From an uncultured Chloroflexia bacterium (GTDB lineage Bacteria; Chloroflexota; Limnocylindria; Limnocylindrales; CSP1-4), in contig CAVTHS010000003.1 in NCBI GenBank assembly GCA_963734535.1, positions 32,001 to 96,000 of the forward strand: a stretch of DNA of 64,000 nucleotides, read 5' to 3'. Shown piece by piece: positions 1,885-62,047 of this stretch; the first letter of the stretch is position 1; each line of letters opens with the position of its first letter. The position numbers and the translations under genes are program-made. The notes under the pieces were generated by a model. The model worked only from the letters and a program-made list of their open reading frames with translations, searched no databases and was not told the DNA's origin.

Positions 1885-2277
1885 TTAGTCACCGGCCGCC
1901 GCGTCAAGTGCCTCCCCAATGAGGCGCTGAAGGACGTCATTCAGGAGTTGCAGCCCTGGGGGCATCGTTCGGCCGAGGGTCGAACGTACGTCGCCCGTGC
2001 GCCCATCCAGCTCGATCGTCCAGTGCATGTCGGTGCCACCAACGCCATCGTCGGGCGGGATGGTCGCGGGAAGGTCGAAGAAGCCGCTCCTCTCGATGGC
2101 CGTCACGAGGTCCGAAAGCCCGACAGCTCCGAGCTTCACGGGGCGTCCCCAGGTGCCGTCAGGGAGGAGTTGCTCGGCTCGGCCCGTCGCGTGGACCCGC
2201 GTCCCGGTGCGCCGAGTGCGCGTTTCGATCACGCACTCGAGCTCGACGCGGCGCCGTTTGGAGCCTCGCTGCGTCAT
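1885..2277 (-). CDS. Hypothetical protein (~130 aa) coupled to the OmpA/metallopeptidase gene; candidate immunity or partner protein
   Basis: ATG at 2277 overlaps the upstream stop (ATGA). Protein-like sequence (AIERSGFFDLP...MHWTIELDG). Confidence 0.7.
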   Translation of the reverse strand: MTQRGSKRRRVELECVIETRTRRTGTRVHATGRAEQLLPDGTWGRPVKLGAVGLSDLVTAIERSGFFDLPATIPPDDGVGGTDMHWTIELDGRTGDVRSTLGRTMPPGLQLLNDVLQRLIGEALDAAAGD

Positions 2278-3998
2278 GTCTTCAGCCTCCACTCATTGGA
2301 CCCGGTTACCGCGCGAAGGGCCTCCATGAACGTGACGTACTGGGGCGACCGGATCGTGCTTCCAAGAGACATGAGGTTGTCGTTGTTCTCGTACACGGAG
2401 TTGCCAAGCCCAGCCGCGGTGCTCCGGGCGTCCTGCGGATGGACGGTGCCCACGGGCTGGCCGGTGCCGAAGACCTTGCCTTGGGCCCTCGTCGGGTCGG
2501 ATGCGTACTCGTCCTGCAGGCCAAGCATGTGCCCGAACTCGTGGGCTGCCTGGTTCTGGCCGGCGCCACCCGCCATGACGATGTCCACACGCCGCGACGA
2601 TGCCGCGCCGCTCTCGCCCGCGCTCCCGGTGCCGGTGGTGGTCTTGACACGTGCTGCGGCGTTCACGAGGTTGTTGCCGCCTACACGTGTCGCCTTCAGA
2701 TAATCCGCGACGGCCTGTGCCCGCTGCTCGGAGAGGCGCTGGTTTCGGGCCTCGCCGGCCGCAGTGCTCGCCCCGACCGTGTCGGCATGACCCGTGATGT
2801 CGATCGTCGTGCCCGTGCCGCCAGTGGGTGTCTGGAAGCTGTAGATGATGTCCTGAAGCTCGCGTTGGGCTGTCGCGTTCAGGCCGACGGAGCCGCGGTC
2901 AAAGAAGACCCGCTGGCGCAGCAGGTGGCTGTGGGCAACGGTCTGGCCGCTGCCAAGCTCGAGAAGGGACTGACCGGCCGCGTCCCGGCCACCCCCCCGG
3001 GCGCCGAAGTCGGTGTTGTCGTCCGGGGTCTTGTAGATCGTCGCGTTGCAGTGAGTCCCGCCGGTGCCCACCGGGATTGACGATGATCCAGCCGGGAGGG
3101 GGCCAGCCACGGTCACGTTCTGCGTGTTCACGACAATGTTGATGCGGGCAAGTTGCGCCTCCCAGCCCGGGTGGCTGCTCTGGAACTGAAGGCCGCTGCC
3201 TGCGGAATTCCAGGCGCCCGTGACATTGGCCCGATAGCCGGTCATCCAGGTCTCCTGATCGCCGGCCCACTTCCACCTCTCCGCCGCCGCGGCCCGCTCC
3301 GATCGCGGCAGGGCGTTGATCTGATTCGCGGCGTTGTTCAGGCTTGCGTGACCAGCCACCGCGAGGTCCCCGTTCATGCTCATTCCGTCCACGAACGTCA
3401 TGCCGATGTTCATGGTCACGGTCAGGTTCATCCCAACCGGGTCGTAGCGAGCCTGGAACCCACCCCCGGGTATGGGTTGGATGAGCTGGCCCTGCGCCGC
3501 AGCCGGCATGGGTCCACGGTCACGAAACGCTTGCAGGTCAGCCGGGACAGCCGCGGGCGCGGGGCCCGCGATGTTCGTCGGCGTCGGCGGGTCGCGCTGG
3601 ATCACCATCCGGGCGACGGCCCCGTTGCCCTGCACCTTCTGCATGTGCTCAATCGCGTTCGCGTGCACGGCTGACATGCCCGGGAGCAGGAGTGCAGCCA
3701 GCAGCGGGCCGGAACGCTCCGGGGCGGTCTCGGCCGGGCCTTCTTCGGAGATGGTGGCGCCGTCGCCCCCGGCGTCCTCCAACGCCCCCATGCGTCTCGC
3801 GCCCGACAGCGTGGCCAGCGGGTTCTGATCGAGACGGTTGTGCGAGCGCGCGACCAGCTCGGCGACCGAGCGGTTCCCGGCGCGCCGTTGGAGATCCATC
3901 GCCGCGCGGACGACGGGCGCATCCGAGCGCTCGCGCGTCCCAGGGAGCTTCCCCGGCGCGAGCACATGCTGATCATGCTGGAGCACACGGTCGCGCAT
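2274..3998 (-). CDS. Putative eCIS-type effector: QRxxGN leader, OmpA-like peptidoglycan-binding domain and HEXXH zinc metallopeptidase
   Basis: Leader motifs LQRRAGNRSV and MQKVQGNGAVARMVIQR. OmpA motifs FFDRGS, ITGHAD, NQRLSEQRAQAV, RRVDI. Peptidase motif HEFGHMLGLQDEY with a later NLMS. GGAGG RBS before ATG 3998. Confidence 0.78.
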   Translation of the reverse strand: MRDRVLQHDQHVLAPGKLPGTRERSDAPVVRAAMDLQRRAGNRSVAELVARSHNRLDQNPLATLSGARRMGALEDAGGDGATISEEGPAETAPERSGPLLAALLLPGMSAVHANAIEHMQKVQGNGAVARMVIQRDPPTPTNIAGPAPAAVPADLQAFRDRGPMPAAAQGQLIQPIPGGGFQARYDPVGMNLTVTMNIGMTFVDGMSMNGDLAVAGHASLNNAANQINALPRSERAAAAERWKWAGDQETWMTGYRANVTGAWNSAGSGLQFQSSHPGWEAQLARINIVVNTQNVTVAGPLPAGSSSIPVGTGGTHCNATIYKTPDDNTDFGARGGGRDAAGQSLLELGSGQTVAHSHLLRQRVFFDRGSVGLNATAQRELQDIIYSFQTPTGGTGTTIDITGHADTVGASTAAGEARNQRLSEQRAQAVADYLKATRVGGNNLVNAAARVKTTTGTGSAGESGAASSRRVDIVMAGGAGQNQAAHEFGHMLGLQDEYASDPTRAQGKVFGTGQPVGTVHPQDARSTAAGLGNSVYENNDNLMSLGSTIRSPQYVTFMEALRAVTGSNEWRLKT

Positions 3999-4052
3999 AG
4001 GCTGCCCTCCGGGGCACCCTAGCCCCACCAGGGCCGAGCGACAAGCGCCGCA

Positions 4053-4079
4053 CGGGCAGACCACGTGCCCGATCGGGCG
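4053..4079 (-). promoter_or_regulatory. Upstream element CGCCCGATCGGGCACGT-N3-CTGCCCG (copy 1)
   Basis: 17-nt exact match to 59006-59022. Contains the perfect palindrome GCCCGATCGGGC. Lies about 55 nt before the start of the OmpA/peptidase gene. Confidence 0.6.
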
Positions 4080-4194
4080 ACCCCTCTTTGCCGCCGACAC
4101 GGGTTGGCCTGCCGGCGGCGCCCAGGCAGGCGGCGGCCAGCGGCGAGCAGCGCGATCCCTCGCCCCGTTGCGGCGCTGGGGAGGACGAGCGAGA

Positions 4195-8027
<3,833 letters not shown>

Positions 8028-8266
8028 TGCGGATGGCTCACCCGGGCGGCTCCGGTCGGGCGAGCGCTCGTGTCGGCGCGCGGGACCCCGAATATCGGGC
8101 CAGCCGATCGCACGGACCCACCCCGAGCGTGGGAGATACAGCCAAACTCGAGAATTGCCGCGTTTCGGAGCGTGACCGTGGCGATTCTGATCGGGTGGGG
8201 CGATATCTGCCGCAGGCCCCGTGGCACAGCGCGGCCTCTCGGTCCGTCGCGCCTGCGCGAGTCGGC

Positions 8267-9220
8267 TCAGGTCGCCTCGACCACTTCCTCGGGCCGCGAG
8301 ACGGCCTGACGTCCGCGCGTCCAGACGATGATCGCGACCGCGACGATGATGATCACGCCGGCGACGAGGGTTCGGGGCGTGACCAATTCGCCCAGGATCA
8401 GCGAGCCGAGCGCGACGGCCACGATCGGGTTGACGTAGGCGTACGTCGCGACGAGCGGCAGCGGCGCCACCCGCAGCAGCCAGGCGTACGCAGTGAAGCC
8501 GATCAGCGACCCGACGGCGACAAGGTAGGCGAGGGCGGCGGCGCTTTCCGCGGTGACGTCCGCCGGGCGGAACCGGCTGATCTCCCCGGTCGCGAGCGCG
8601 ACGACCCCGAGCATCGCCCCGCCGCACAGCATCTGCATGCCGACGCCGACCAGGGGCCGCACGGGCAGGTGGGCGCGGCTGCTGTAGAGGGAGCCGATCG
8701 CCCACAGGATCGGCGAGCCGAGGAGGATCAGCGCGCCCGCCGGATCCACGGAGGCGCTCCCGCCGGCCGGCCAGACGAGCACGCCGACCCCCGCGAACCC
8801 GAGCCCGATCCCGACGACTGTCGAGCGCGAGAGCCGCAGGTCGAAGAAGAGCCGGCCGAGGATCGCGACCCACACGGGCAGCGTGGCGATGAGCAGCGCG
8901 GCGATCCCCGACGCGACCGTCGTCTCGCCAAGCGCCACGAGGCCGTTGCCGCCCACCAGGAGAAACCCGCCGATGATCGCCGCGTCCCGCCATTCACGCC
9001 GACCCGGCCGGGGCTCTCCCGCCCGGCCGCGCGACGTCACGGCGAGGAGGAGCGTACCCGCGATCAGAAAGCGGATCGAGCTCTGCGTGAAGGGCGGGAT
9101 CGTGCCCACGGCGATCCGGATGGCGAGATACGTGGAGCCCCAGACGACGTAGAGGGCACCCAGGGCGAGCGCGACCTGGGCCCCGGGTGCGCCGAGCGTG
9201 CGGTGGGCGGGCGTTGCCAT
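8267..9220 (-). CDS. EamA/DMT family transporter
   Basis: LYVVWGSTYLAIR, about 10 TM segments, YAYVNPIVAV. Confidence 0.9.
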   Translation of the reverse strand: MATPAHRTLGAPGAQVALALGALYVVWGSTYLAIRIAVGTIPPFTQSSIRFLIAGTLLLAVTSRGRAGEPRPGRREWRDAAIIGGFLLVGGNGLVALGETTVASGIAALLIATLPVWVAILGRLFFDLRLSRSTVVGIGLGFAGVGVLVWPAGGSASVDPAGALILLGSPILWAIGSLYSSRAHLPVRPLVGVGMQMLCGGAMLGVVALATGEISRFRPADVTAESAAALAYLVAVGSLIGFTAYAWLLRVAPLPLVATYAYVNPIVAVALGSLILGELVTPRTLVAGVIIIVAVAIIVWTRGRQAVSRPEEVVEAT

Positions 9221-9348
9221 CCGGGAAGGATGCCAGCCGGCCTCCGGGCCTGCTGGCGCATTCCGGCCGCCCTGCGGCCGAGGGCTGCGCTGGCGCCTGC
9301 GGCCGGCCCGTCGTGGGGGCCCTCCGAGCGTGCGACAATCGCGGGGCG

Positions 9349-10362
9349 ATGCCGCTCGACGACCGCTTCGACGATCTCGTCGCCAGCCTGGCCGGGTTCT
9401 ACCGGGCATGGGTGATCCAGCTCGGGATCGAGCTGGGGCTCTTTGCCCGCCTCCGTGAGGCCGGGTCGACTGGGCTGACGCGCGCCGACCTGGCCCGGGC
9501 CGCGACCGCCGCCCCCGAGCCAGTCTCCGCCTGGTGCGACGCGGCCTACGCGGCCGACCTGATCGCGGATGACGGATCACGGGTCACCATCGACGCGGAC
9601 GTCGCATCGATTCTGCTGGACAAGGACCGCACTGCGTACCTGGGCGGGCAGTTCACGTACACGGTCACGGCGAGCCTGGACTACGACCGGATGGCCGAGT
9701 ACCTGCGCACCGGCGAGCCCGTCGGCTCTCGATCGGCGCGCTACTACCGGGCGATCGAGGCCCTGACCCGCCAGGACATCGCGGTCTTCTTCGAGGAGGC
9801 GCTCGCCGCGCTTCCCGACCTCGTGGCGGACCTGGTCCGGGGGATCGACGTCATCGACCTCCACTGCGGCGGAGGCCGCTGGCTGGCGGCGATCGCGCGG
9901 CGCTTTCCGAAGGCGCGCCTCGTGGGCGTGGAGCCGGAGTCCGATTCGGTGACCCGCGCGATCCAGCTGGTGCAGCGCGCGGGCCTCGGGTCGCGGATCC
10001 GGATCGAGGCCCGCGAGGTGGATGAGAAGCTGGCCGTCGGCTCCTTCGACCTGGCCTATCTCCAGCACGCCCTCCACGAGATGCCGGACCCGGTCGTGGC
10101 GCTGCAGTCGGCGTGGCGCATGATCCGGCCCGGGGGCTGGCTCATCGTCCTGGGCTGGTGCCTGCCCGACGGTCTCGAGGACTACGCGACCCTCCATGGG
10201 CAGCTGATCGCGGGCGTCGCGCTTGACGAGCTGTTCCATGGGGCGCGCCTGCGGACCGTCGCGCAGCACGCGGAGCTGTTCCGCGCCGCCGGGCTCCCCG
10301 AGCCCGAGGCGATCCCGCTCCCGTCCGACGCGACGCTCCTCGTGACGCGGCGCGACGCCTGA
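9349..10362 (+). CDS. Class I SAM-dependent methyltransferase with N-terminal winged helix
   Basis: GIELGLF N-terminus, VIDLHCGGG motif I variant, FDLAYLQHALHE, IRPGGWL. Confidence 0.85.
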   Translation: MPLDDRFDDLVASLAGFYRAWVIQLGIELGLFARLREAGSTGLTRADLARAATAAPEPVSAWCDAAYAADLIADDGSRVTIDADVASILLDKDRTAYLGGQFTYTVTASLDYDRMAEYLRTGEPVGSRSARYYRAIEALTRQDIAVFFEEALAALPDLVADLVRGIDVIDLHCGGGRWLAAIARRFPKARLVGVEPESDSVTRAIQLVQRAGLGSRIRIEAREVDEKLAVGSFDLAYLQHALHEMPDPVVALQSAWRMIRPGGWLIVLGWCLPDGLEDYATLHGQLIAGVALDELFHGARLRTVAQHAELFRAAGLPEPEAIPLPSDATLLVTRRDA

Positions 10363-10418
10363 CCGCTTGGCGAGCGTCCGGCGGCGTATCGGGCTGACCG
10401 AGCCGGCCCGGCGCGCGA

Positions 10419-10482
10419 TCAGTTCACGACGATCGTGCCGTGCATGCTGGCGTGGATCCCGCAGACGTACGTCCCTGCAGCC
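10419..10482 (-). pseudogene. C-terminal remnant of a cupredoxin (plastocyanin/azurin-like) gene
   Basis: Reads AAGTYVCGIHASMHGTIVVN*, the type-1 copper C-x2-H-x2-M loop. No cupredoxin-like sequence upstream. Confidence 0.5.
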
Positions 10483-10512
10483 CGGGCGCCTCCCGATCTT
10501 CGTGGCGCTCCC

Positions 10513-11419: not shown

Positions 11420-11856
11420 TCGAACGAGCGACGCTCACGTTCCGGGACGCCGGTCCGGACGACGCTGAATGGATCGCGCGGCTTCTCTCCGACGAGGGGT
11501 ATCCCGCCGGGGCCACCGACATCGTGCGCCGCCTGGAGCGGTACGTCGACCGCGAATGCCCCGTCCGCATCGCGGAGTCCAGTGGCGAGCGCGTTGGCTT
11601 CGTGGCCTGCCAGGTGATCCCGCGCTTCGAGCATGACGACCACGTCGTGCGGGTGATGGCGCTCGTCGTGGACCCGGGTGTCCGCGGTCGCGGCGTCGGG
11701 GCAGCGCTGATGGCCGAGGCGGAGGCCATCGCGGTGGGGATCGACGCCGCGTTCCTCGAGGTGACCGCCGGCCATCATCGTCCGGGCGCCCGGCGCCTGT
11801 TCGAGGCCGCCGGCTACGACGCCTCGCTCACGAGCTACCTCCGGAAGCGGCGCTGA
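11416..11856 (+). CDS. GNAT family N-acetyltransferase
   Basis: LVVDPGVRGRGVGAALM acetyl-CoA motif; ARRLFEAAGY. Confidence 0.9.
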   Translation: MIERATLTFRDAGPDDAEWIARLLSDEGYPAGATDIVRRLERYVDRECPVRIAESSGERVGFVACQVIPRFEHDDHVVRVMALVVDPGVRGRGVGAALMAEAEAIAVGIDAAFLEVTAGHHRPGARRLFEAAGYDASLTSYLRKRR

Positions 11857-31412: not shown

Positions 31413-32639
31413 GTGTTCGACGCATTGGACGGGCTGGGACCCGATCAGCGGCTGCTCGGCGAGACGGTCCGCCAGTTCGCGCGCGAGGTGATCGCGCCCG
31501 GCGCGATCGCGCGTGACGAGGAGGAGCGGTTCGACCGGTCGCTGATCGGCGCGATGGCCGGCCTGGGACTCCTCGCCGGGCCATTCCCCGAATCGGCCGG
31601 CGGGGCGGGCCTGACCGCCGAGGCGTGGACGATCGTCGTGGAGGAGATCGCCGCCGCGGACATGGCCGTCGCCGTGAGCCTGTGCGTCCATGTCCTGCAC
31701 CAGAACCCGGTGGTCCGCTGGGGCACGCCCGAGCAGCAGGCCCGCTGGCTGCCCGCGATGCAGGCGGGCGAGGCGCTCGGTGCGTTCGCGCTGACCGAGC
31801 CCGGCGCCGGATCGGACGCTGCCGCGATCCGGACGCGGGCCACGCGCCTCGCGGCCGACGGCAGCCTGATCGGCCCGGACGAGCGGACCGCCGGCGACGA
31901 TTCGACCGGTGCCGCCGCCTACCGGCTCGATGGGACCAAGATCTGGATCTCGAATGCCCCTGACGCCGAGCGGTACCTCGTCTTCGCCACCCTCGACCCG
32001 GCACGTGGCGCCGCCGGGATCACGGCGTTCCTGGTCGAGAAGGGGACACCCGGCTTCCGCTCCGGCGCGCACGAGAAGAAGATGGGGATCCGGGCGTGCC
32101 CGGCTGCCGAGCTCGTGTTCGACGGTGCCGTGATCCCCGCCGCCAACCGGCTCGGCGGGGAGGGAGAAGGGTACCGGGTGGCGCTGTCGGCGCTGGGCGA
32201 CGGCCGGATCGCGATCGCCGCCGCCTGCACGGGCCTTGCGCGCGCGGCACTGGACCGCGCGACGACGTACCTGCACGAGCGGCGAGCCTTCGGGGTGGAG
32301 ATCGCGGAGCTCCAGGGCCTGCGCTTCATGGTCGCGGAGATGGCCCAGCGGGTCGCGACCGCGCGCGCGCTGACGCGGGGCGCAGCCGCCGCGCGCGACC
32401 GCGGCGCCCCCGGAGCGGAGGTTGCCGCCGCGGCATCGCTCGCCAAGTGGACCGCGTCGGACGCGGCCATGCGCGTCACCACGGACGCGGTTCAGCTCTT
32501 CGGCGGGGCCGGCTACTCACGTGAGACCGGGGTGGAGCGGCTCATGCGCGACGCCAAGGGTGCCCAGATCTACGAGGGCACGAACCAGGTCCACCGCGGC
32601 ATCGTCGCGGACGCGATCCTCGGGCGGGTGTCCGGGTAG
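31413..32639 (+). CDS. Acyl-CoA dehydrogenase (butyryl-CoA dehydrogenase-like)
   Basis: AFALTEPGAGSD, GTKIWISN, KMGIRA, VQLFGGAGY, IYEGTNQV. Confidence 0.92.
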   Translation: MFDALDGLGPDQRLLGETVRQFAREVIAPGAIARDEEERFDRSLIGAMAGLGLLAGPFPESAGGAGLTAEAWTIVVEEIAAADMAVAVSLCVHVLHQNPVVRWGTPEQQARWLPAMQAGEALGAFALTEPGAGSDAAAIRTRATRLAADGSLIGPDERTAGDDSTGAAAYRLDGTKIWISNAPDAERYLVFATLDPARGAAGITAFLVEKGTPGFRSGAHEKKMGIRACPAAELVFDGAVIPAANRLGGEGEGYRVALSALGDGRIAIAAACTGLARAALDRATTYLHERRAFGVEIAELQGLRFMVAEMAQRVATARALTRGAAAARDRGAPGAEVAAAASLAKWTASDAAMRVTTDAVQLFGGAGYSRETGVERLMRDAKGAQIYEGTNQVHRGIVADAILGRVSG

Positions 32640-35653: not shown

Positions 35654-35728
35654 GGGCCCGTAGCTCAACGGTAGAGCGGGGGACTCTTAATCCCTAGGTT
35701 CAGAGTTCGAATCTCTGCGGGCTCACCA
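35654..35728 (+). tRNA. tRNA-Lys (anticodon CTT)
   Basis: Acceptor stem GGGCCCG/CGGGCTC, D arm AGCTCAACGGTAGAGC, anticodon loop CTCTTAA, T loop GTTCGAATC, encoded CCA. Confidence 0.95.
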
Positions 35729-46574: not shown

Positions 46575-47330
46575 GTGGCGCACGACGGCACGCGCGGCGT
46601 ATCGTCTCGTGGCCAGCGTCCCGGCGCCGGTGATGGACGTCCCCACCAAGGAGCCCGCCCGATCGACGCGCCGCGCGACCCCGTCCCGATCGACACGCCC
46701 GGCACCGACACGCCGAGGGACGACCTCGAGGCGCGTCGGGTCGTCGCTGCGGTGCTCGAGGGCGATCCGGACGCGTTCCGGACTCTCGTGGAGCGCGAGT
46801 CTCGGACGCTCGTTCGCAGCTGCTACCGCGTTCTCGGCGACCTCCACGACGCCGAGGACGCAGCCCAGGAGGCATTCGTGACGGCGTATCGGGCGCTCGG
46901 GACGTGGCGCGGCGACGGGCCCTTCGGCGCGTGGCTCGCCCGGATCGGCGTCCGGATCGCGCTTCGGAAGGCATCCCGGCGACGGCCCGTGGTGTGGATC
47001 GATCCGCACCCGGTAGCGGCCGACGGCGGCAGCGATGAGCGCGTTGCAGCGAACACGGTCGGGGAGCGTGCCCTGCTGGGCGCCCTCGGCCGGGCCGAGG
47101 CTGATCCCGCCCAGCTCTTCGCGCGAGCCGAGCGCGCGGCGTCGATCCGGGCTGCCGTGGCCAGCCTGGACGAGCCGTACCGCGAGGTCATTGCGCTCCG
47201 CTTCTTCTCCGAGCTCTCGCTGGCCGAGATCGCCGAGGAGGCAGGTCGGCCCCTCGGAACGGTCAAGACACATCTCCACCGCGGCCTCCGGCGGCTGCGC
47301 CGCGCTCTCGATACGGAAGGCGTGGCCTGA
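46575..47330 (+). CDS. ECF sigma-70 factor
   Basis: GDPDAF, DAEDAAQEAF, FGAWLARI, PLGTVKTHLHRG. Confidence 0.9.
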   Translation: MAHDGTRGVSSRGQRPGAGDGRPHQGARPIDAPRDPVPIDTPGTDTPRDDLEARRVVAAVLEGDPDAFRTLVERESRTLVRSCYRVLGDLHDAEDAAQEAFVTAYRALGTWRGDGPFGAWLARIGVRIALRKASRRRPVVWIDPHPVAADGGSDERVAANTVGERALLGALGRAEADPAQLFARAERAASIRAAVASLDEPYREVIALRFFSELSLAEIAEEAGRPLGTVKTHLHRGLRRLRRALDTEGVA

Positions 47331-54084: not shown

Positions 54085-54144
54085 CGGACCGAACGCGGCT
54101 GTGCTCCACCAGTGGGCGGTCATGTCCGCCCCGGGTGCCCGCGG

Positions 54145-54750
54145 TCAGCCGGCCGTCTCCGTCATCTCGGCAACCGACTGCCCGAGGATGTCGCGCAGCC
54201 GCAGGAGCGCCGTGCGGATGCGCGTCTTGGCCGTTCCCAGCGGGATGCCCAGCGCCTCGGAGACCTCGACATGCGTCAGGCCCCCGAAGAACGCCATCTC
54301 GACGGCCGTCCGTTGGGCCTCCGGCAGCTCGGCGATCGCGGCCCGGACAGCGTCGCGCCGCACGTGCAGCCATGCCTCCTGGTCGACGTCGTCCGCCGCC
54401 TCCTCGAGCTCGAGGTCGACGTCGGCCGTGTGCCGGCGCACGCTCGCCTCCTTGCGCACGAGGTCGATCGCCTTGTGCCGGGCAAGGGAGAACAGCCAGG
54501 AGCTCAGCGATCCGCGGGCCGGGTCGAAGCGGCCGGCGTTCTTCCAGACCGCGACGAACACCTCCTGGACGACATCCTGGGCGAACCGGTCACCGCCCGT
54601 CACCTGGTAGGCAAGGGAGTAGAGCGGGCCGGAATAGCGTTCGTGGAGTGCCTCGATGGCCCGCTCGTCCTGCTCGCGGATCCGGACGAGAAGCGCGGCC
54701 TCTTCCGCCCGGCGTTCGTCAGGGGTTGGCGCGGCTTTCGCGTCCGGCAC
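54145..54750 (-). CDS. ECF sigma-70 factor (SigK-like)
   Basis: DVVQEVF, FDPARGSLSSWL, PLGTAKTRIR. Confidence 0.92.
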   Translation of the reverse strand: MPDAKAAPTPDERRAEEAALLVRIREQDERAIEALHERYSGPLYSLAYQVTGGDRFAQDVVQEVFVAVWKNAGRFDPARGSLSSWLFSLARHKAIDLVRKEASVRRHTADVDLELEEAADDVDQEAWLHVRRDAVRAAIAELPEAQRTAVEMAFFGGLTHVEVSEALGIPLGTAKTRIRTALLRLRDILGQSVAEMTETAG

Positions 54751-54753
54751 GGA

Positions 54754-55740
54754 TCAGCGCCCGGATGATCCCGAGACCAGGTCGGCACGATCCCGGAAGC
54801 GCTCCAGGACGCGGTAGAAGCTGCGCCGGGCGAGGCGGTCACGGTCCGGGACGTCCGGCGAGACCGCGCCGCCTTGTTCATGGCGGACCAGCGGGAGCTC
54901 GAGGCGCAGGGCGCGCCGCGGAGGCCGGTCCGGGTTCGCGCCGGCGCGCAGCACCAGGCTCCACCACGTGTCCAGCCACCGGTCGGAGACGAGCTTTCCG
55001 TCGAGCGGGCCGAGGGTCGCGATCTCGGCCCGCCGGAAGGCCAGCCAGGTGGCATCGATGGCGTCGACGTCGGGTCCCGCGGCCTCGTCGAGATGGCCCA
55101 GGTCCGGGCCGGCAACGCCGAACCCACCGGCGACCGCGACGGAGGGATCGGCGAACGCATCGACCAGCGGCGTGAGGGCATCGCCGATCATCTCGACGGA
55201 CGGCCCCGCGAGCACCACCACCTCGCCGCGGGCGCGACGGAGGCCCGCGTTCAGGGCGATGGCATGCCCGAGCCGCGCGCTGGTCCAGACGAGCTCCGGA
55301 TCGGTTCCGGCGATCGGAGCCAGGTCGGGTGAGCCCGGGGCGAGCCGCTCGGCCTGTTCCGGTGGCGGGTCGTTGGCGACGAGCAGGACCTGCGTGCCGC
55401 CCGGGGCGTGGACGCGGAGGCCGTCGAGGATCCGCGCAAGGGCGTCGGGCTGGTCGCCGGCGACCAGGAGGACCGTGAAGGGGGCGGTGGCGGGCTCGTC
55501 GAGCAGGGACGGCACGGTCTCCGCGCTCCCGTGGCGCACGACCCGGGTGTCCTCGATCGTGGGAGGCGCGGCAGGCTCCAGACGATAGGCCGTTCCGCGA
55601 TCCATCACGCGCCAGCCCGCCGCCTCGATGCTCGCCCGGAGGATGTCGGCGCGGGCGAAGTCGCGGCCGGCGCGGGCGTTCGCCCGTTCGCGCGCCAGCG
55701 CCTCGATCTCGTCGGGCGGCGTAGAGGAGGCCGGTGTCAC
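54754..55740 (-). CDS. CysRS C-terminal-like helical domain fused to a GT2-like glycosyltransferase domain
   Basis: ARERANARAGRDFARADILRASIEAAGWRVMD; LGHAIALNAGLRRARGEVVVL. Confidence 0.68.
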   Translation of the reverse strand: MTPASSTPPDEIEALARERANARAGRDFARADILRASIEAAGWRVMDRGTAYRLEPAAPPTIEDTRVVRHGSAETVPSLLDEPATAPFTVLLVAGDQPDALARILDGLRVHAPGGTQVLLVANDPPPEQAERLAPGSPDLAPIAGTDPELVWTSARLGHAIALNAGLRRARGEVVVLAGPSVEMIGDALTPLVDAFADPSVAVAGGFGVAGPDLGHLDEAAGPDVDAIDATWLAFRRAEIATLGPLDGKLVSDRWLDTWWSLVLRAGANPDRPPRRALRLELPLVRHEQGGAVSPDVPDRDRLARRSFYRVLERFRDRADLVSGSSGR

Positions 55741-57182
55741 TCCGCGAGTGTAGCCGGGACGATGGGCAGGACGACGCTGACGCGGGCGCCGCGCGGCGCG
55801 AGGTTCTCGGCCGCCGCATCGCCTCCGTGACGCCGCGCCAGCTCGCGGACGATGGCGAGGCCGAGCCCCGAGCCCGGGCCGCTCCGGGATGGGTCCCCGC
55901 GGTACGAGCGGTCGAACGCGTGCTCGAGGCCGCCCGGCGGGAAGCCTGGACCATCATCCGAGACGGAAAGCACGATCGACGGGCGCCCATCGGGCGTTCG
56001 GGCGCCGCGGACGCCCAGGTGGACGCTGGGCGCGGCGTTCCCGGCGACCCCGTGCCCGACCGCGGCGAGCGCATTCTCGACCAGGTTCGAGAGGATTCGC
56101 TCGACGGCGAGCCGGTCCGCCGCGAATGGCAGCGCGACGGACGGCGTGTCGGTCACCAGGTCCACGCCCACGGCCGCCGCCCGCGGGGCGAACCGCGCGC
56201 CAGCTTCCGCGATCACAGCGCCGCCCTCCAGCTGTTCCGGCCGGAAAGCGGCCGACTCGTCGCGGAGCCCGTCGAGCGCGCCGAGCTCGCCGACGAGCCG
56301 TTCGAGCCGTGCCGCCTCGTCGGCGATCGCCCGCGCCGCCCGGGGCGCCGCGTCGCCGCTCGCGGTCCCGTCCACGAGGGCCTCCGCGAACCCGCCGATC
56401 ACGGTCAGCGGCGTCCGCAGGTCGTGGCGAAGGTTCGCGAGCAGCTCGGTCTCGGCGCGCCGTGTCCGCGCCAGCTCGCCCCGCATGGCATTGAACCTGA
56501 TGGTCACCTCCCGGACCTCGCTCGGGCCCTCCACCGGCAGTGGTGGCGGTTCCGGCCCGGTGCCCTCGGCAGGCACCGCCGCGGTTGCGACCGCGAGCCG
56601 CCGGAGCGGGCCGGTGGTGGAGCGCGCGAGCAGCCAGGCGAGCGGCCCGCCCACCAGGAGCACGACGAGCCCGACCAGCGGCAGCGTCCGCAGGAGGTCC
56701 CCGAGCGCCTCCGCACCTGCGCGGTCCGGGGCCGCCAGGACGATCGCGCGCGACAGGACGGCCCCGGGCTGTGTGAGCGCCACGACGCTCGTCGCGCGCG
56801 TCGTGCCGTCGTCGAATCGGAGCGTCGCGTCGGCGACGGTCCCGCGGCCGCCGCCCGGGATGGCGGGCAGGTCGCCGACGGGCCGGGCACTTCCCGCGAG
56901 GCTGAGCGGAGGACGAGCCGCGCCGGGCACGAACAGGAGCGCGATGTCCAGCGAGTCGAGCTGGTCGCGCAGCGTCTCGAGCGCGGTGGCAACGTCGGCA
57001 CGGTCCGCGCGCGCCCCGAGCTGCCCGACGATCGTGGCGCCGACCGCATGCAGCCGCCCGAACGCCGCGTCGCGGTGGAGCCCGCGGACGACCACGAAGA
57101 GGGCCCCGCCGACGCCGACGAGCACGGCGAGCGCAGTCAGGGTGAGCGTGAGGGCGAGGCGGCCGGCGAGGCTCCTGGGCAC
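55737..57182 (-). CDS. HAMP-domain sensor histidine kinase
   Basis: Two TM helices, HAMP, HDLRTPLT, NLVENA, DDGPG, GSGLGL. Confidence 0.93.
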   Translation of the reverse strand: MPRSLAGRLALTLTLTALAVLVGVGGALFVVVRGLHRDAAFGRLHAVGATIVGQLGARADRADVATALETLRDQLDSLDIALLFVPGAARPPLSLAGSARPVGDLPAIPGGGRGTVADATLRFDDGTTRATSVVALTQPGAVLSRAIVLAAPDRAGAEALGDLLRTLPLVGLVVLLVGGPLAWLLARSTTGPLRRLAVATAAVPAEGTGPEPPPLPVEGPSEVREVTIRFNAMRGELARTRRAETELLANLRHDLRTPLTVIGGFAEALVDGTASGDAAPRAARAIADEAARLERLVGELGALDGLRDESAAFRPEQLEGGAVIAEAGARFAPRAAAVGVDLVTDTPSVALPFAADRLAVERILSNLVENALAAVGHGVAGNAAPSVHLGVRGARTPDGRPSIVLSVSDDGPGFPPGGLEHAFDRSYRGDPSRSGPGSGLGLAIVRELARRHGGDAAAENLAPRGARVSVVLPIVPATLAE

Positions 57183-57192
57183 GTGGGGTGCC

Positions 57193-57918
57193 TCAGCGCG
57201 CGTCTTCGGACGGGAAGCGCGCGTCTTCGGACGGGAGCGAAGCGCGCGCGGGTGGGACGAGCCGGTATCCCACGCCGCGCACCGTCTCGATGGGCGGTCC
57301 GTCGTCGCCGAGGTGCTTGCGCAGCTCCGCGACATGGACGTCGACGGTCCGGGTCTCGCCCGGGAAGTCCGTACCCCACACGTCCTCGAGGAGGACGTCC
57401 CGGGTCAGGACCACCCCGGGGTCCCGGGCGAGCGCTGCCAGCAGGTCGAACTCGCGCGCCCGGAGCTCGAGGCGGCGATCGCCGACGATGGCCTCGCGAC
57501 GACGGCCGTCGATCCGGAGCGATCCGACCTCGATCGGACGGGCACCCGCCGCGGACCTGGCGCTTCGCCGGAGGATCGCCTTGACACGGGCCACCAGGGC
57601 GCGTGGGTTGAAGGGTTTGGTCACGTAGTCGTCGGCGCCCAGCTCGAGCCCGACGATCGTATCCACGTCGTCCGTGCGGGCCGTGAGCATGAGGACCGGG
57701 GTATCGCCGCGGCGACGGATCTCCCGGCAGACGTCGAACCCGTCCTGCCTCGGCAGCATCAGATCGAGGACGACGAGATCCGGGTCGTGCCGCAGGTGGA
57801 GCGCGAGCCCCTCGTCGCCGTCGCGAGCCGCGATCACCTCGAAGCCCTCCTTCTCCAGGTAGAGGCGGAGGAGCGCCACGATGTTCGGCTCGTCGTCGAC
57901 GACGAGAACGCGCTTCAT
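57193..57918 (-). CDS. OmpR-family response regulator
   Basis: VLVVDDE, LDLMLP, GADDYVTKPF, RTVDVHV, TVRGVGY. Confidence 0.95.
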   Translation of the reverse strand: MKRVLVVDDEPNIVALLRLYLEKEGFEVIAARDGDEGLALHLRHDPDLVVLDLMLPRQDGFDVCREIRRRGDTPVLMLTARTDDVDTIVGLELGADDYVTKPFNPRALVARVKAILRRSARSAAGARPIEVGSLRIDGRRREAIVGDRRLELRAREFDLLAALARDPGVVLTRDVLLEDVWGTDFPGETRTVDVHVAELRKHLGDDGPPIETVRGVGYRLVPPARASLPSEDARFPSEDAR

Positions 57919-58045
57919 GGTTCTGGAGTCTACGGTGCGCCGGCCGGCCCAAGGGGCTCGAACGTAAGCGCCGCGTAAGCCCGGATCCACCGAGAGGAAC
58001 CGAGCGGGAGGCTGGCCCCGGAGCGGCCGACTGGAGTGGCGAGAC

Positions 58046-58663
58046 TCAGGCGAGCACCAGGTTGTTGAGGGCGTGGAGACCGATGCACGTCCACAGGGAA
58101 CCCTTCCTGTGCAAGACGTAGCCCATCCAGACCGAGAAGAACGCCACCCATAGACAGCCCATCGCCGAGATATCGGTGCCCCTGGCGAGCCAGAGAGGCA
58201 CGTGGTAGAGAACGAAGAGGGCCGCCGTCGCGAGGTTGCCTCCAGTCGTGCCGACCATGCTGTCCAGGCGTCGCAGCAGAACGCCGCGGAAAGCGGCCTC
58301 CTCCACCACCGGCGAGACGATGACGGCTGAGACCAGGTAGAAGGCCGAGATCGGGGGCAGGTCCGGTCGCCCGCCGTGGATGAGCAATGAGTACGCAGCA
58401 ATCAGGACTGCTCCGCCGAACAACCATCCCAATTGCGGTGCCTTGTCGAGACCGAGATAGGCTGCGGGATCGGCCCGCTCCAGCCGCGGGTATGCCAGGG
58501 CGAGCGTTCCCCACAGAACGAGTTTGAGCGCGAGCGCCAGGGTGGCCGAATATGGAAGCGCCAGGAGCAGCAGGCTCCACAGCCCGATGGGTATCGCGAT
58601 CAGCGCCGTGGTGCCGGCAAGCGCGGAGCCACGCCAACGTCCGGGCTCGGCGTGCGGGATCAA
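58046..58663 (-). CDS. CPBP/CAAX (Abi) family intramembrane metalloprotease
   Basis: PVVEEAAFRG, FVLYH, HALNN. Start uncertain (TTG 58663). Confidence 0.85.
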   Translation of the reverse strand: MIPHAEPGRWRGSALAGTTALIAIPIGLWSLLLLALPYSATLALALKLVLWGTLALAYPRLERADPAAYLGLDKAPQLGWLFGGAVLIAAYSLLIHGGRPDLPPISAFYLVSAVIVSPVVEEAAFRGVLLRRLDSMVGTTGGNLATAALFVLYHVPLWLARGTDISAMGCLWVAFFSVWMGYVLHRKGSLWTCIGLHALNNLVLA

Positions 58664-59005
58664 GGTGAGACCAGAACTGGGGGGGAACTGGACCCCGAGG
58701 GCCGAACGAGATCCCGAGCACCGGCGGACCCTTCGGCGTCGCCAACGCTCGGCAGAGCCGGGACCTCCGGCAGGGCATCGTCGTAGCGAGCGCGTCTCAC
58801 GGCAGAGCGCTCCAGCTGCACAGGCACTTCCAATCGAGCGCGGATTGCTCCCCGCGGCCGCCGTTCTGCGGCGTGGGCATGGTTCCAAGCATAAGGATCG
58901 TTCGCGGCCGCCACCGCTCGATCTGCCGAGCTGCCGGCGTGAGGAATCGTCGGCGGCGCCACCGGTCTGGCGGCTGCACTTCCGTGGATCCGGAGTCGGG
59001 TCAAG

Positions 59006-59033
59006 CGCCCGATCGGGCACGTTCGGCTGCCCG
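59006..59033 (+). promoter_or_regulatory. Upstream element CGCCCGATCGGGCACGT-N4-CTGCCCG (copy 2)
   Basis: Same core as the reverse complement of 4063-4079; directly upstream of the large QRxAGN protein. Confidence 0.6.
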
Positions 59034-59068
59034 ATCGTCCGCCCGAAATCGCCTGTGGGCGGGTCCGC

Positions 59069-62047
59069 ATGCGCGCGACCATCCACGCATGCGACTGGGC
59101 CTCCGCGCAGCCGACGACCGTGCCTGATCGCGCCGAGCTTGTCGAGCGCGACGAGCTGGAGACGCTTCGCCGGCGTCCGGGCGCGCCGGGCTCCAGCCCG
59201 GCGGCAGCGGTCGCCGACGACCCGACCATCCAGATCCTGCCTGCCACGTCTCGCCGAACGGGGCCCGGATCGGGTCCGGCCATCTTCCCGCGTGGGATGG
59301 GTCCGGCAGCCTTCATGGCGACACAGCGACTCGCGGGCAACCGAGCGATGCTCCAGGCCCTAGCCAGGGCGCAGGTGTCGCTCCTGCGCACGACGGCGGA
59401 CCCGGAGCAGGACGAGGAGAAGCCCGCCGGCGGCGCCTCGCCGGCCGAGTTGCTCGCGCTGCCAGGGCAGGCGGGCGCGGCGGCCGGAGCCCCGAACGGC
59501 GCGGCTGGTTCGGGAGAGCAGGGGGGCGCGGGCGAGGGATCTGCGGCCGGCGCCGGCGCGAAGCTGTCGAAACAGGGCGGTGGTGGTCGGAACGGCCAGG
59601 AGCTCGAGAAACCCGCTCTGTCGGCGGCCGGTGACGCGGCGGGTCCAGCCGGCCAGGCCGGCGCCGCGATCGGTGGAGCAGGGGCGGCGTCTGCGGTTGG
59701 CGGAGCCGGGGCCGGTGCCGGAGCCGGAGCCGCGGCCGCGGGCGAAGCGGCCGGAGCCGCGGCCGTCGGCGCAGCGGGGGCCGGAGCAGCAGGTGAATCG
59801 GCTGGGGCCTCGGCCGCGGGTGCTGCGGCCGAGGCCGCGATCGGGACTGCCGTCGGAGGCGGGCCGGGCGCCGCCGCAGGTGCTGCGGCCGGAGCCGCGG
59901 TCGGAGGAGCGTCGGGCTCGGGCGCATCGGCGGGCAGTCGATCGACCGATGTCGCTGCCGGCGCCGGCGCGCCCGGAGGCGGGGCCGCCGGGTCGTCCCG
60001 CACCCGCCGAACCGAGCCGCCGCCGATCACTGGGACGGGCGGTCCGTCGACGCCCCGGGCGGGCAGCGGCCCGTCGACCGGCCCGGGTGGCGTGACGGCA
60101 GGCGGCGGTCCGGGCCAGGCAGGCGGCGCTCCGGGCCAGGCAGGCGGCGGTCCCGCCACGACCCTCGACGCGACGGGGAGCGGGCCTGCGTCTCCGATCA
60201 CCACAGCTCCCGCGACCGCCACCGGCGGGAACGGGGCCTCTGGCGTCGCGGACCCCACAACCGCGAGAACCGGCATCGACTGGAACCAGATGCTCTCGGA
60301 CTTCGGGCCGCCCGCCCGCACCGTTCTCGAGGTCGGCCGGCTCATCCCTGGCTGGGGGCTGTTGGCCGGCCTCGCGTCCGACTCCCTCAGCTGGGCGAGC
60401 GACATGAGCTCGATCCCGGCGTCCAAGAACGCCCGGTTCGCGACGGACCTCGTGATCTTCCGGAACGTCGTGAACATCCTGAACAACGGGCTCGGGCACG
60501 TCCTGTACGTGGACCAGCTGATCCAGGACGGGCTGGCGGGATCGGTCGTGGGCGCCGAGTTCACACCCTTGACCGCGGCGGCCAATGAGGTCCTCGCCGG
60601 CATCAAGGTGGCGCTCGACGAGGTCCAGCTGGGGACCGACGTGCTCGTCGAGGTCGAAGCCCTGTACCAGGCGAACCACGCGCCGGACAGCACCGAGGCC
60701 GAGGCGTGGCGTGCCCTCGCGGACAACTACGCCGCGAACATCCTCGGCGATGTCGTCAATACGATCCTGGACCTCATCAGCCTCGCGAGCGCGGGTGCCG
60801 CGAACACCGCGCCGGTCGAGGAGGCGAAGCTGCCGCTGACCCTCGCCGGCGCATTCCTCGAGCACGCCGCCCCGAACATCATCTCGGCCATCAACAACGT
60901 CGTCGGCGTCTGGCTCGGGACCGGCGTGACCGCCGGACGCCATGCGGCGACCGGCACCCCCGCCACCGGCGGCGCGGCTGCGGGCCCGGCCGCTGGCACG
61001 TCGAGCACCCCGGGCGGACCGGCTCCGGCACCAGGCGCCGCGGGTCCCGGCGCAGGGACAAAGGTGCAGCGGATCATGGCCGGGCAGCCAGGCGAGACAA
61101 GCGGACCCGGGGGCCGCGCGGCGCGCCTCCAGGCACAGGCCGCGGCCTACGACGTGGCGGGCGGCTTCATCGACATCGAAGCGCCCCAGGCCCGTGCCAC
61201 CTATGACGGCATGAACCTCGTGATCGGCGCGTTCGAGGCATATGCGGAAGACCAGATCGCCCAGATCGACGCGGTGGTCGGCGCGCTGTCCGGCGGCAAG
61301 TCGGCCTTCCAGGTGATCCGGGACGCCGTCAAGGCCGGCCTCGATGACATGAACGCGAAGCTCGGCGTGGCCCAGCAGCTCGGCGAGACCGCGACCAACG
61401 CGAAGGCGAACGCCGCGTCCATCTCGGCGGCGTGCACGACGGTCCTGGCCGGGATCGACGGCCTTGTCATGCCCAGCGTTCGAATTCCGAGCGTGGACCT
61501 CGGGGATGGCGTCCTCGCCGATGCCGCTGCAGCCGTCGCGAACACGGCGGCGGCGGCTGCGAACACCGCCCTCGAGCTGGCCGTCTCGGGCGTGTCGGCG
61601 GCCCTCGACACGGCGAAGGACGCGATCCGGAGCCCCATCCTGGATCTCAAGAGCCATGCCGACAGCCTCGGCGAATGGCTCGCGATCCTCGCCACGAAGA
61701 GCACCGAGTTGGTTGCCTCGCTGCATACCCAGATCGCCTCGTTCAGCGAGGGCCTCGGGCACTGCAACAACGTCGAGGACGTCATCAACCTGATCATCGG
61801 CCAGGTGAGCGACATGACCGGCATGCCCAGGGTCACGGTGCAGGACCTCCGGGACACCTGGGACAGCGTCGGGCCGTACATCGACCAGTTCGCCGCGCTC
61901 GGGCCCCAGCTGCACGATCGAGCCGCGGCCCTGCGCGCGCAGGCTGCCGAGCTCGGCGCGGAAGACGAGGGCGGCACCACGTTCGCCCTGCCGCCCGGGC
62001 CGCCGCCGGACGCGGGCGCGGGCGCCGGGGTGGGGGCGCCGGCCTGA
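59069..62047 (+). CDS. Large Gly/Ala-rich protein with QRLAGN leader and helical C-terminal region; putative eCIS-type effector
   Basis: ATQRLAGNRAM, long Gly/Ala linker, helical region with hydrophobic segments (LIPGWGLLAGLA), KVQR. Start may be GTG 59120. Confidence 0.75.
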   Translation: MRATIHACDWASAQPTTVPDRAELVERDELETLRRRPGAPGSSPAAAVADDPTIQILPATSRRTGPGSGPAIFPRGMGPAAFMATQRLAGNRAMLQALARAQVSLLRTTADPEQDEEKPAGGASPAELLALPGQAGAAAGAPNGAAGSGEQGGAGEGSAAGAGAKLSKQGGGGRNGQELEKPALSAAGDAAGPAGQAGAAIGGAGAASAVGGAGAGAGAGAAAAGEAAGAAAVGAAGAGAAGESAGASAAGAAAEAAIGTAVGGGPGAAAGAAAGAAVGGASGSGASAGSRSTDVAAGAGAPGGGAAGSSRTRRTEPPPITGTGGPSTPRAGSGPSTGPGGVTAGGGPGQAGGAPGQAGGGPATTLDATGSGPASPITTAPATATGGNGASGVADPTTARTGIDWNQMLSDFGPPARTVLEVGRLIPGWGLLAGLASDSLSWASDMSSIPASKNARFATDLVIFRNVVNILNNGLGHVLYVDQLIQDGLAGSVVGAEFTPLTAAANEVLAGIKVALDEVQLGTDVLVEVEALYQANHAPDSTEAEAWRALADNYAANILGDVVNTILDLISLASAGAANTAPVEEAKLPLTLAGAFLEHAAPNIISAINNVVGVWLGTGVTAGRHAATGTPATGGAAAGPAAGTSSTPGGPAPAPGAAGPGAGTKVQRIMAGQPGETSGPGGRAARLQAQAAAYDVAGGFIDIEAPQARATYDGMNLVIGAFEAYAEDQIAQIDAVVGALSGGKSAFQVIRDAVKAGLDDMNAKLGVAQQLGETATNAKANAASISAACTTVLAGIDGLVMPSVRIPSVDLGDGVLADAAAAVANTAAAAANTALELAVSGVSAALDTAKDAIRSPILDLKSHADSLGEWLAILATKSTELVASLHTQIASFSEGLGHCNNVEDVINLIIGQVSDMTGMPRVTVQDLRDTWDSVGPYIDQFAALGPQLHDRAAALRAQAAELGAEDEGGTTFALPPGPPPDAGAGAGVGAPA

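Follow-up and report, generated by a model that had tools for sequence, protein, structure and literature searches.

Tagged genes with paired upstream boxes as probable scattered members of a contractile injection system regulon in an uncultured Chloroflexota bacterium

Cargo proteins of extracellular contractile injection systems (eCIS) and of cytoplasmic contractile injection systems (CIS) are now predicted mainly by their position at the end of the operon and by the DUF4157 domain, and the loading signals in the available text of the reports are described without a conserved sequence (PMC11297309, 10.64898/2026.05.27.728243). In AlgoCIS (Cgo1/Cgo2; 10.64898/2026.05.27.728243; PMC8894135), whose locus includes an AAA+ ATPase, a disordered N-terminal region upstream of DUF4157 is reported to be required for loading, with DUF4157 itself dispensable and the AAA+ protein Alg15 needed, and the authors describe loading sequences as not conserved between systems. 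Payloads of the Photorhabdus virulence cassettes (PVC) are reported to carry N-terminal signal peptides that are recognised with the help of the AAA+ ATPase Pvc15 (PMC11495950, 10.1101/2023.08.15.553202), and the DUF4157-linked eCIS toxins known as EATs place unrelated C-terminal domains behind a common N-terminal module (PMC8213781, PMC11297309). Here we analysed a window of 64,000 nucleotides (the whole stretch of DNA studied, positions 32,001 to 96,000 of contig CAVTHS010000003.1 in assembly GCA_963734535.1) from an uncultured Chloroflexia bacterium, in which two genes, termed A and B, each encode a short N-terminal sequence motif (the tag) in a protein lacking DUF4157 and are each preceded by the same DNA element, a pair of palindromic boxes. 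A and B are probably scattered, co-regulated members, and cargo, of a regulon that is centred on a CIS encoded outside the window on contig C8 and marked by the tag and the box pair.

The arrangement resembles that of orphan type VI secretion effectors with MIX or FIX, which are scattered genes with a short N-terminal marker, co-regulated with their machine. The machine differs, the CIS here having Pvc16_N and gp19-type tubes. As in AlgoCIS, there is an N-terminal region ahead of DUF4157 and an AAA+ ATPase in the locus; unlike AlgoCIS, the tag is a defined sequence motif, and the cargo candidates are without DUF4157, encoded at a distance from the locus and known here from their genes alone. 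The PVC payload genes adjoin their cassette and are said to have no conserved signal sequence (cited in PMC11297309). The EATs share with the present system the GerE/BTAD regulators nearby and the existence of A relatives with DUF4157, a domain that A and B themselves do not have. The CIS cluster of Streptomyces, encoding phage tail-like particles (SLP; sco4242-4263; PMC8505568, PMC10020575), is similar in having two divergent promoter regions, a LuxR/GerE-type regulator gene (likened by type only) and Ig-like accessory genes, and the class IId loci of Chloroflexi are reported to encode Sco4256-like proteins (PMC8505568, PMC10020575). Control of the Streptomyces cluster differs in going through a TTA codon and bldA, and the available text of those papers describes no operator or off-cluster regulon members. 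We found no printed description of the tag motif, whose written forms matched unrelated papers only, through an author's name, or of orphan or distal eCIS effector regulons (supplementary files, which might list motifs, were not covered). Compared with the literature found, what appears new is a sequence tag kept without DUF4157, cargo candidates scattered over the chromosome, and a candidate operator tying them to the machine, a PAAR-like tip and a regulator.

A first-pass annotation of the window, made from the letters alone, had singled out A and B as two otherwise unrelated genes about 55 kb apart with a common N-terminal motif (LQRRAGNRSV in A, TQRLAGNRAM in B) and a common upstream element, had seen no DUF4157 in either protein and no sheath, tube or baseplate gene in the window, and had inferred a machine encoded elsewhere, whose promoters were to be checked for the element. 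The observations held. PF13699 (DUF4157/eCIS_core) has no match in A or B at E <= 0.1 (Pfam), and none of the 56 open reading frames (ORFs) called in the window, 55 of which were scanned against Pfam, was recognised as a CIS structural gene. The 17-mer CGCCCGATCGGGCACGT occurs exactly before both genes (4079-4063 on the minus strand and 59006-59022 on the plus strand), and these are its only two places in the whole genome of 3,199,878 bases at zero or one mismatch (12 places at up to two mismatches). The genome is a draft in 14 contigs (89.9% complete, 7.1% contamination). Looser matches within the window (up to 3 mismatches) are at chance level (5 seen vs 2.72 expected), so only the exact pair carries weight. 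Outside the shared stretch, the upstream regions of A and B show no convincing alignment. The element consists of two palindromic boxes with the 14-bp consensus TGCCCGATCGGGCA, spaced 21-22 bp apart (individual boxes are listed in Table 1). At the orthologous sites of relatives the full unit is this 14-bp palindrome, often in the form CTGCCCGATCGGGCAG, with more boxes at 22-bp steps. GCCCGAwCG direct repeats for a BTAD/SARP protein (SARP, Streptomyces antibiotic regulatory protein) were our first reading of the element and were demoted to a minor rival, as the sites in the genus show full 14-bp palindromes.

We scanned the own genome (G000) for box pairs with a spacing of 21-23 bp and 22 or more matching positions out of 28, and six sites came back: those of B and A, C8:399722 in the divergent promoter of the CIS, C11:127202, which is the promoter of another tag protein (C11:124799-127126), C10:97602, and one on C13. 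The pair at C10:97602 is common to a DUF4280 (PAAR-like) gene (C10:97122-97526, PF14107 E 1.9e-26), on a contig different from that of the CIS locus, and a divergent lipoprotein gene. The match on C13 (C13:30448) sits in coding-looking sequence and was treated as chance. As controls, the reversed box gave 0 sites, and 20 palindromes built by shuffling the half-sites averaged 1.9 sites, the highest count being 28. Because one shuffled palindrome reached 28, the enrichment in this genome alone is modest, and the comparative data carry the argument. We note that the lipoprotein gene (G000:C10:97600-98400, L103) seems to switch frame in this assembly: a signal-peptide ORF stops at ~97920, and the conserved C-terminal portion is read on in a different frame. 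Relatives have the gene in one piece (L049, L087), and its break in G000 could be genuine or an artefact of assembly.

The genome contains a complete CIS locus at C8 ~386.5-404.5 kb. One strand encodes the sheath (PF04984/PF17482), two gp19-type tubes (PF06841 x2), an unassigned 782-aa (amino acid) gene in tape-measure position, CIS_tube (PF19266), a GPD/Phage_base_V VgrG-like spike (PF04717/PF05954), gp25 (PF04965), Baseplate_J (PF04865) and Tail_P2_I (PF09684), and the other strand encodes Pvc16_N (PF14065), an AAA+ ATPase with a winged-helix N-domain (PF00004+PF22977) and an eCIS_core/DUF4157 protein (PF13699). The last of these (C8:402827-403750) holds the one PF13699 match above cut-off genome-wide (C8:403112-403342, E 2.3e-29). 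Its gene is followed by a GerE/LuxR-type gene (C8:403775-404527, minus strand; GerE domain PF00196 E 2.6e-12) and then by three Ig-like/PD40 genes. The intergenic region between sheath and Pvc16_N carries TGCCCGATGGGGCA (13/14) and a 9/14 box 22 bp on, and the region between the LuxR-type gene and a 421-aa Ig-like gene carries CGCCTGATCGGGCA (12/14) and the half-box CTGCCCGACGG 21 nt on. A CIS locus with sheath, tubes, baseplate and AAA+ ATPase, whose absence the annotation had named as a refutation of its regulon, is thus present in this genome, and boxes lie in its sheath/Pvc16_N promoter, as they do in relatives.

For the comparative test we used 42 genomes of the genus. The 14-mer GCCCGATCGGGCAC (up to one mismatch) is found in 42/42, several-fold above the reversed control (19 vs 5 in G000). 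A strict double-box pattern, GCCCGATCGGGCN{8,11}GCCCG, gave 68 oriented matches, corresponding to 59 sites (overlapping strand rows merged) in 30 of the 42 genomes; the reversed control gave 0. The sites were classified by tblastn with the proteins of the own genome and by ORF calling. Upstream of tag ORFs lie 22 of them, with the box 205-437 nt before the tag (21 by regular expression, including A and B, and one with the variant LSALAGNRAV in L078), and a further site is a probable B-type locus cut by a contig end (L097). Ten sites are in the divergent promoter between sheath and Pvc16_N, six between the LuxR/GerE gene and the 421-aa Ig-like gene, and eight lie 75-100 nt upstream of DUF4280 (two of these also face the lipoprotein). 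In sum, CIS genes, the regulator linked to the CIS, DUF4280 and tag genes account for 47 of the 59 sites; the others are eight coding sites in three conserved genes (msrA-like 1, hydantoinase-like 4, sdhC-like 3) and four unclassified ones (L070, L084, L092, L101).

The association with the tag is far above expectation. The expression Q...GN..[LIVMAT] has 52 matches in the six frames of the own genome, which gives ~0.006 expected per 700-nt oriented window, and a tag was found within 700 nt after 20 of the 67 oriented double-box matches; the enrichment of the element upstream of tag proteins, whose absence was the other refutation named by the annotation, is seen across the genus. The tag ORFs behind boxes belong to about ten unrelated families (A, B, C11-like, VQRTAGNAAT, LDLQxxAGN families and others), among which orthologues are not independent. 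Boxes and machine also occur together. The CIS marker Pvc16_N is present in 27 of the 42 genomes, namely in 23 of the 25 with non-coding boxes vs 4 of the 17 without (Fisher P 7e-6, uncorrected for relatedness), and the two box genomes without it are 76% and 54% complete, one of them having its box at the LuxR/421-aa pair. In a class-wide sample the exact pattern is sporadic (20/151 genomes, a tally that includes one match in G156), and matches outside the family mostly come without the GGGCA extension. Of five GGGCA-type matches examined in two sister genera, four are at regulon-like places, two of them in the sheath/Pvc16 promoter (L104, L108), one close to a DUF4157 gene (L106) and one close to a homologue of the C2 DUF922 tag protein (L105); the fifth is coding-looking.

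With the strict tag expression Q[RK]xxGNx[AS][VMIL], applied to six frames of the own genome, we identified five matches spread over four long ORFs, two of them in A and one each in B, C2:38819-39748 and C11:124799-127126. Looser forms add the DUF4157 protein of the CIS locus, with LRLQRAAGNAGV, and an ORF of ~1000 aa at C8:~91.3-94.5 kb, with RLQALAGNRAVAGHLQR, making six tag proteins; an ABC (ATP-binding cassette) ATPase, also matched by a looser form, was discarded as an obvious false positive. The consensus is LQxxAGNxAV, or more fully h-x-x-[LM]-Q-x-x-A-G-N-x-A-V, after a poorly conserved N-terminal stretch. Both forms of the motif that the first-pass annotation had named were followed up. 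The tie of QRxxGNxAV to DUF4157 holds in this lineage: among the homologues listed for the DUF4157 protein (56-88% identical, a narrow sample), 120 of 120 have the tag 96-99 residues before HExxH, and in the protein of the own genome it lies (~60-72) outside the Pfam domain (96-172). The later IQR or VQR that had been noted in both proteins stands for A, where MQKVQGNGAVARMVIQR includes IQR; in B the only VQR is at residue 666, distant from the tag. As a side observation on the C2 protein (G000:C2:38819-39748, L010:8819-9748), which has a DUF922 domain, its sister-genus homologue (L105) has an exact double box near its start.

The co-regulation of A and B and their link to the CIS are, from the distribution of boxes and tags, well supported. 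In the mechanism that we propose, paired TGCCCGATCGGGCA operators with centres 21-22 bp apart (two helical turns), upstream of -10-like hexamers, would be bound by a dimeric helix-turn-helix regulator, for which the GerE/LuxR-type protein of the CIS locus would be the best candidate, as an activator. Its regulon would include the divergent sheath and Pvc16/AAA+/DUF4157 operons, the intergenic region of the regulator, the DUF4280 tip gene and a changing set of unrelated tag genes. The tag would most likely direct A and B to the CIS, which could mean loading via the AAA+ ATPase or, alternatively, docking to the complex of DUF4157 protein and spike; A would be a snapalysin-like peptidase cargo with a peptidoglycan-binding insert, coupled to a small candidate inhibitor, and B a helical, possibly membrane-active one. 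We infer the role of the tag as a loading signal, the involvement of a single transcription factor, activation and the identity of the regulator from these patterns. Two reports bear on the role of the tag: the AlgoCIS data cited above, and the finding that, in S. lividans, proteins of the spike complex are bound by a DUF4157 protein that also binds an effector lacking DUF4157, at the effector's N-terminal part (PMC13277306). By analogy, both fit a tag that brings proteins to the machine, by direct loading or DUF4157 docking alike.

The promoters themselves are consistent with this proposal. Several tag genes have a -10-like TAGGGT, TAGCGT or TACCGT followed by the start codon within ~8-17 nt; in A, the centre of box 2 is ~30 nt upstream of the candidate -10, and GGAGGG is 6 nt ahead of the ATG. 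Box centres are at ~-42/-63.5 in A and L067 and at ~-53.5/-75.5 in L053, L055, L068, L096 and L100, on one helical face, and these positions upstream of the -10-like hexamers fit an activator sitting upstream of RNA polymerase. A palindromic box suggests a dimeric helix-turn-helix protein, and the GerE/LuxR gene is the obvious candidate because boxes are also found in its own intergenic region; a protein of that dimeric kind most likely binds the boxes, and the GerE/LuxR product, as the best candidate, would most likely act as an activator. The LuxR-type SCO4263/SlpR is reported to be needed for Streptomyces CIS particles (PMC8505568, PMC10020575), and GerE and BTAD regulators are reported to associate with eCIS loci (Geller et al., PMC8213781). 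In the LuxR intergenic region of relatives (L064, L072, L077, L083, L089, L095), we also observed a conserved tandem CCTAACG/CACCTAAC repeat, two copies of TTAGGTG on the opposite strand, immediately next to the box pair; it may serve as another regulatory site or as the promoter of the regulator gene itself. Separately, a 971-aa AfsR-like Trans_reg_C + BTAD protein that flanks the CIS locus (G000:C8:383642-386557, L008:1642-4557) is a second candidate regulator of the CIS.

Several observations weigh against the proposed regulon and its tag. The fixed distance between tag and HExxH in DUF4157 proteins means that the tag could be a structural or processing element of the DUF4157 domain and not a loading signal. 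Not all tag genes have the box pair: the C2 protein has no recognisable box, the one at C8:~91.3 kb has a single 11/14 box, and the A homologues in G007, G004 and G003 are without the exact box. Eight of the 59 sites are within coding sequences, so the pattern alone is not specific, and four Pvc16_N genomes have no exact non-coding double box. The relatives in the genus are not independent, hence the P-values overstate the case. At the promoters, no convincing -10 was found for B, and the distance from box to -10 varies (~-42/-63.5 vs ~-53.5/-75.5). Lastly, the related Streptomyces systems are reported to act inside the producer, in developmental cell death (PMC10020575), so that injection of the cargo into another cell is not assured.

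A broader form of the proposal, which we put forward as a serious but tentative possibility, is that LQxxAGNxAV is a portable address tag that, together with the TGCCCGATCGGGCA pair, would read out the cargo (a dozen or so unrelated families per genus, mostly far from the machine), with the DUF4157 protein as an in-trans receptor. The alternative that survives best, unlikely in our judgement, keeps the same regulon and gives the tag another role, as a recognition, docking or cleavage element for the stand-alone DUF4157 protein, which would serve as an in-trans adaptor or processing peptidase, so that the AAA+ ATPase would not read the tag directly. The constant 96-99 residue spacing in all 120 listed homologues, a CIS-locus DUF4157 protein that has no toxin domain, and the S. 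lividans protein that binds both the spike complex and a DUF4157-less effector (PMC13277306) are what this alternative would lead one to see; AlgoCIS, where loading is reported to need the upstream region and DUF4157 is dispensable (10.64898/2026.05.27.728243), speaks against it, and no cleavage site is evident in the sequence.

Table 1. Coordinates of genes A and B, their tags, boxes and neighbours in the window (positions counted from the first letter of the window)
Feature	Position	Strand	Description
130-aa gene after A	1885..2277	-	overlaps the stop of A as ATGA
Gene A	2274..3998	-	574 aa, ATG 3998, stop 2274; two tags, then predicted zinc peptidase with OmpA-like insert
Zinc-site motif of A	2511..2543	-	HEFGHMLGLQD (HExxHxxGxxD), whose H, E, H, G and D do not vary across the 44 family members aligned
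OmpA-like peptidoglycan-binding domain of A	2568..2933	-	residues 356-477, inserted in the predicted peptidase fold
Tag copy 2 of A with IQR	3594..3644	-	MQKVQGNGAVARMVIQR, residues 119-135
Tag copy 1 of A	3864..3893	-	LQRRAGNRSV, residues 36-45
Candidate core promoter and ribosome site of A	4005..4021	-	-10-like TAGGGT 4021-4016; GGAGGG 4010-4005
Box 2 of A	4045..4058	-	TGCCCGTGCGGCGC; 9/14 to TGCCCGATCGGGCA; 21 bp past box 1
Box 1 of A	4066..4079	-	CGCCCGATCGGGCA; 13/14 to TGCCCGATCGGGCA
tRNA gene	35654-35725	+	Rfam 71 bits
Histidine kinase (55740-57182) and OmpR-type response regulator (57196-57918)	55740..57918	-	Pfam; conserved neighbours of B homologues
CPBP/Rce1-like membrane protease gene	58046..58663	-	divergent from B; PF02517 E 9.9e-19
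Box 1 of B	59006..59019	+	CGCCCGATCGGGCA; 13/14 to TGCCCGATCGGGCA
Box 2 of B	59028..59041	+	TGCCCGATCGTCCG; 11/14 to TGCCCGATCGGGCA; 22 bp past box 1
Gene B	59069..62047	+	992 aa from ATG 59069; tag, Gly/Ala-rich spacer, ~600-aa all-helical domain (modelled)
Tag of B	59321..59350	+	TQRLAGNRAM

According to its structure model, the product of A is a metzincin-like (snapalysin-like) zinc peptidase with an inserted OmpA-like domain. Residues 140-574 were modelled from a 44-sequence alignment (predicted local distance difference test, pLDDT, 92.3; predicted template-modelling score, pTM, 0.89). Invariant in this alignment are H347, E348, H351, G354, D357 and M404 (aligned-region numbering), the Met lying 47 residues past the Asp of the zinc motif, and HEFGHMLGLQD together with this Met fits a snapalysin-type zinc site, with the Asp of HExxHxxGxxD presumably being the third zinc ligand, as in snapalysin. 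Model residues 51-425, which cover both sides of the insert, were compared with metzincins by VIA-align and gave Z-scores in a middling range that is common: ADAMTS-5 7.3, ulilysin 7.2 (2cki_A; root-mean-square deviation, rmsd, 4.2; 172 residues aligned), astacin 6.7 and snapalysin 6.2 (4hx3). The OmpA-like domain is clearer, with a PF00691 match (E 3.8e-11, 43.6 bits vs a cut-off of 27.2) and, for model residues 217-338, a VIA-align Z of 14.5 to 9uu2_A (rmsd 2.2, 107 aligned); Foldseek with the A model returned only this insert. A resembles snapalysin (an M7 metzincin) and the protealysin/emfourin operon in its HExxHxxGxxD motif, predicted metzincin-like fold and small downstream candidate inhibitor, but A is far larger and has the OmpA-like insert, the fold similarity is only Z 6-7, and the neighbour has no Emfourin Pfam match.

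The A family has 70 database matches. In 49 of them the tag precedes the catalytic region by ~60-75 residues, and 13 of the remainder are short at the N-terminus; the copy kept in distant homologues is copy 2. Two members, P0057 (756 aa) and P0069 (640 aa), have PF13699 in place of the bare tag, thus one effector module occurs both behind DUF4157 and behind a bare tag. A protective gene had been proposed beside each of A and B, and the proposal fits A, whose 130-aa neighbour is kept downstream of its homologues in 4 of 5 relatives, and does not fit B, as described below. The neighbour is a candidate inhibitor or immunity partner of A, translationally coupled as judged from the overlapping reading frames. 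Neither it nor its four homologues match any Pfam family at E <= 10, Emfourin PF20242 included. The protein atlas puts a cluster labelled Emfourin first for this neighbour (score 0.94, 184 shared features), and 21% of that cluster's members carry PF20242; the assignment of the neighbour to the Emfourin family was dropped as there is no Pfam match even at that threshold. The stretch 1887-3736 is covered by contigs of an RNA library (run X20), most of them 90-99% alike; the library may contain DNA, and the contigs show no single transcript. One contig of 340 nt (2142-2479) bridges A and its neighbour, no more than a hint that the locus may be expressed in a relative, and no meaning attaches to the low cover at 3732-3983.

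The second alternative concerns A alone, which would not be cargo and would be a co-regulated peptidase acting on the producer's own wall, in particle release or CIS-linked cell death, restrained by its small neighbour. It draws on the combination of a peptidoglycan-binding insert with a metzincin-like fold, on the conserved and coupled neighbour, and on reports that lysis is the presumed route by which eCIS particles leave the cell (PMC8213781) and that the Streptomyces CIS is tied to cell death (PMC10020575). We consider it improbable, as A has no signal peptide-like N-terminus, shares its tag with other families and has relatives with DUF4157, a marker of CIS-associated toxins.

B has no Pfam domain and belongs to no known family. 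Its start is more likely GTG 59120 (975 aa) than ATG 59069, although the frame from ATG 59069 is open: in databases, members of the family are mostly annotated as starting with (M/V)P(D/E)R(A/V)(E/R)L, the equivalent of GTG 59120. The model of the helical domain consists entirely of long helices at low confidence (pLDDT 57.9), and B may be a long helical, possibly membrane-active protein. Of 42 matches in the B family, 28 have the tag and the others are N-terminally short. The CPBP/Rce1-like gene divergent from B, which had been taken as its protective gene, is single-copy in the own genome and has no homologue in the other loci examined, including seven B-type loci of relatives; its absence there makes the link to B weak, and it is probably a bystander. 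The response regulator, by comparison, abuts the box pair in 7/7 B-type loci of relatives (L025/L054, two handles for one place, and L035, L052, L071, L086, L097). We note that this regulator/kinase pair, divergent from B, might pass a signal to the regulon or merely reflect synteny.

That pair is also the starting point of the third alternative, a broader stress or envelope regulon under another factor (the OmpR-type regulator by B, or the SARP/BTAD protein by the CIS), with tag proteins leaving the cell by a non-CIS route. The constant position of the pair next to the boxes in relatives, the BTAD/Trans_reg_C protein flanking the CIS locus, and the lipoprotein gene that shares its box pair with DUF4280 are in line with it. 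OmpR and SARP proteins typically bind direct repeats, unlike the palindromic boxes here; in addition, 47 of 59 sites in the genus are at CIS, CIS-linked regulator, PAAR-like or tag genes, and the boxes co-occur with the CIS marker. We therefore regard a broader regulon as quite unlikely. The idea that the shared 17-mer and the tag are functionless leftovers of a recent duplication or mobile repeat, suggested by 17 identical bases with two copies only in the genome, is hardly credible, because the flanks are unalignable outside the boxes, the two coding regions bear no relation to each other, other species retain the boxes at the orthologous loci with diverged surroundings, and ordinary metabolism lies between A and B.

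If the tag of the CIS-centred regulon is indeed a loading or docking signal, it would provide a genome-wide rule for finding cargo of Chloroflexota-type systems, and possibly of related actinobacterial and cyanobacterial ones, as well as a candidate minimal tag for engineering such systems. It would also come with a testable operator for LuxR-type regulators, whose binding sites we did not find described in the printed text available. Should the tag prove portable, most cargo would be invisible to locus-based toxin predictors. As the organism is uncultured, the regulon also offers an initial functional clue to the cargo that its injection system delivers.

The remainder of the window (G+C 72%) is unremarkable. 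The 51 ORFs called between the A and B loci encode routine metabolism and housekeeping functions (acyl-CoA dehydrogenases, methylmalonyl-CoA mutase, carbamoyl-phosphate synthase, M16 peptidases), therefore A and B are not on an island. An Rfam scan of the window returned the tRNA only, with no match at the upstream regions of A or B. Two ECF (extracytoplasmic function)-type sigma factor genes lie between A and B (46752-47327, plus strand; 54148-54603, minus strand), with no tie to the boxes seen. The nearest named relatives of the genome's proteins are from metagenome bins labelled Candidatus Limnocylindrales or Chloroflexota. Downstream of B, a Ser/Thr protein kinase gene with a C-terminal FIMAH-like domain (just below the Pfam cut-off) is found at 62076-63611 on the minus strand, convergent with B and 26 nt from its stop.

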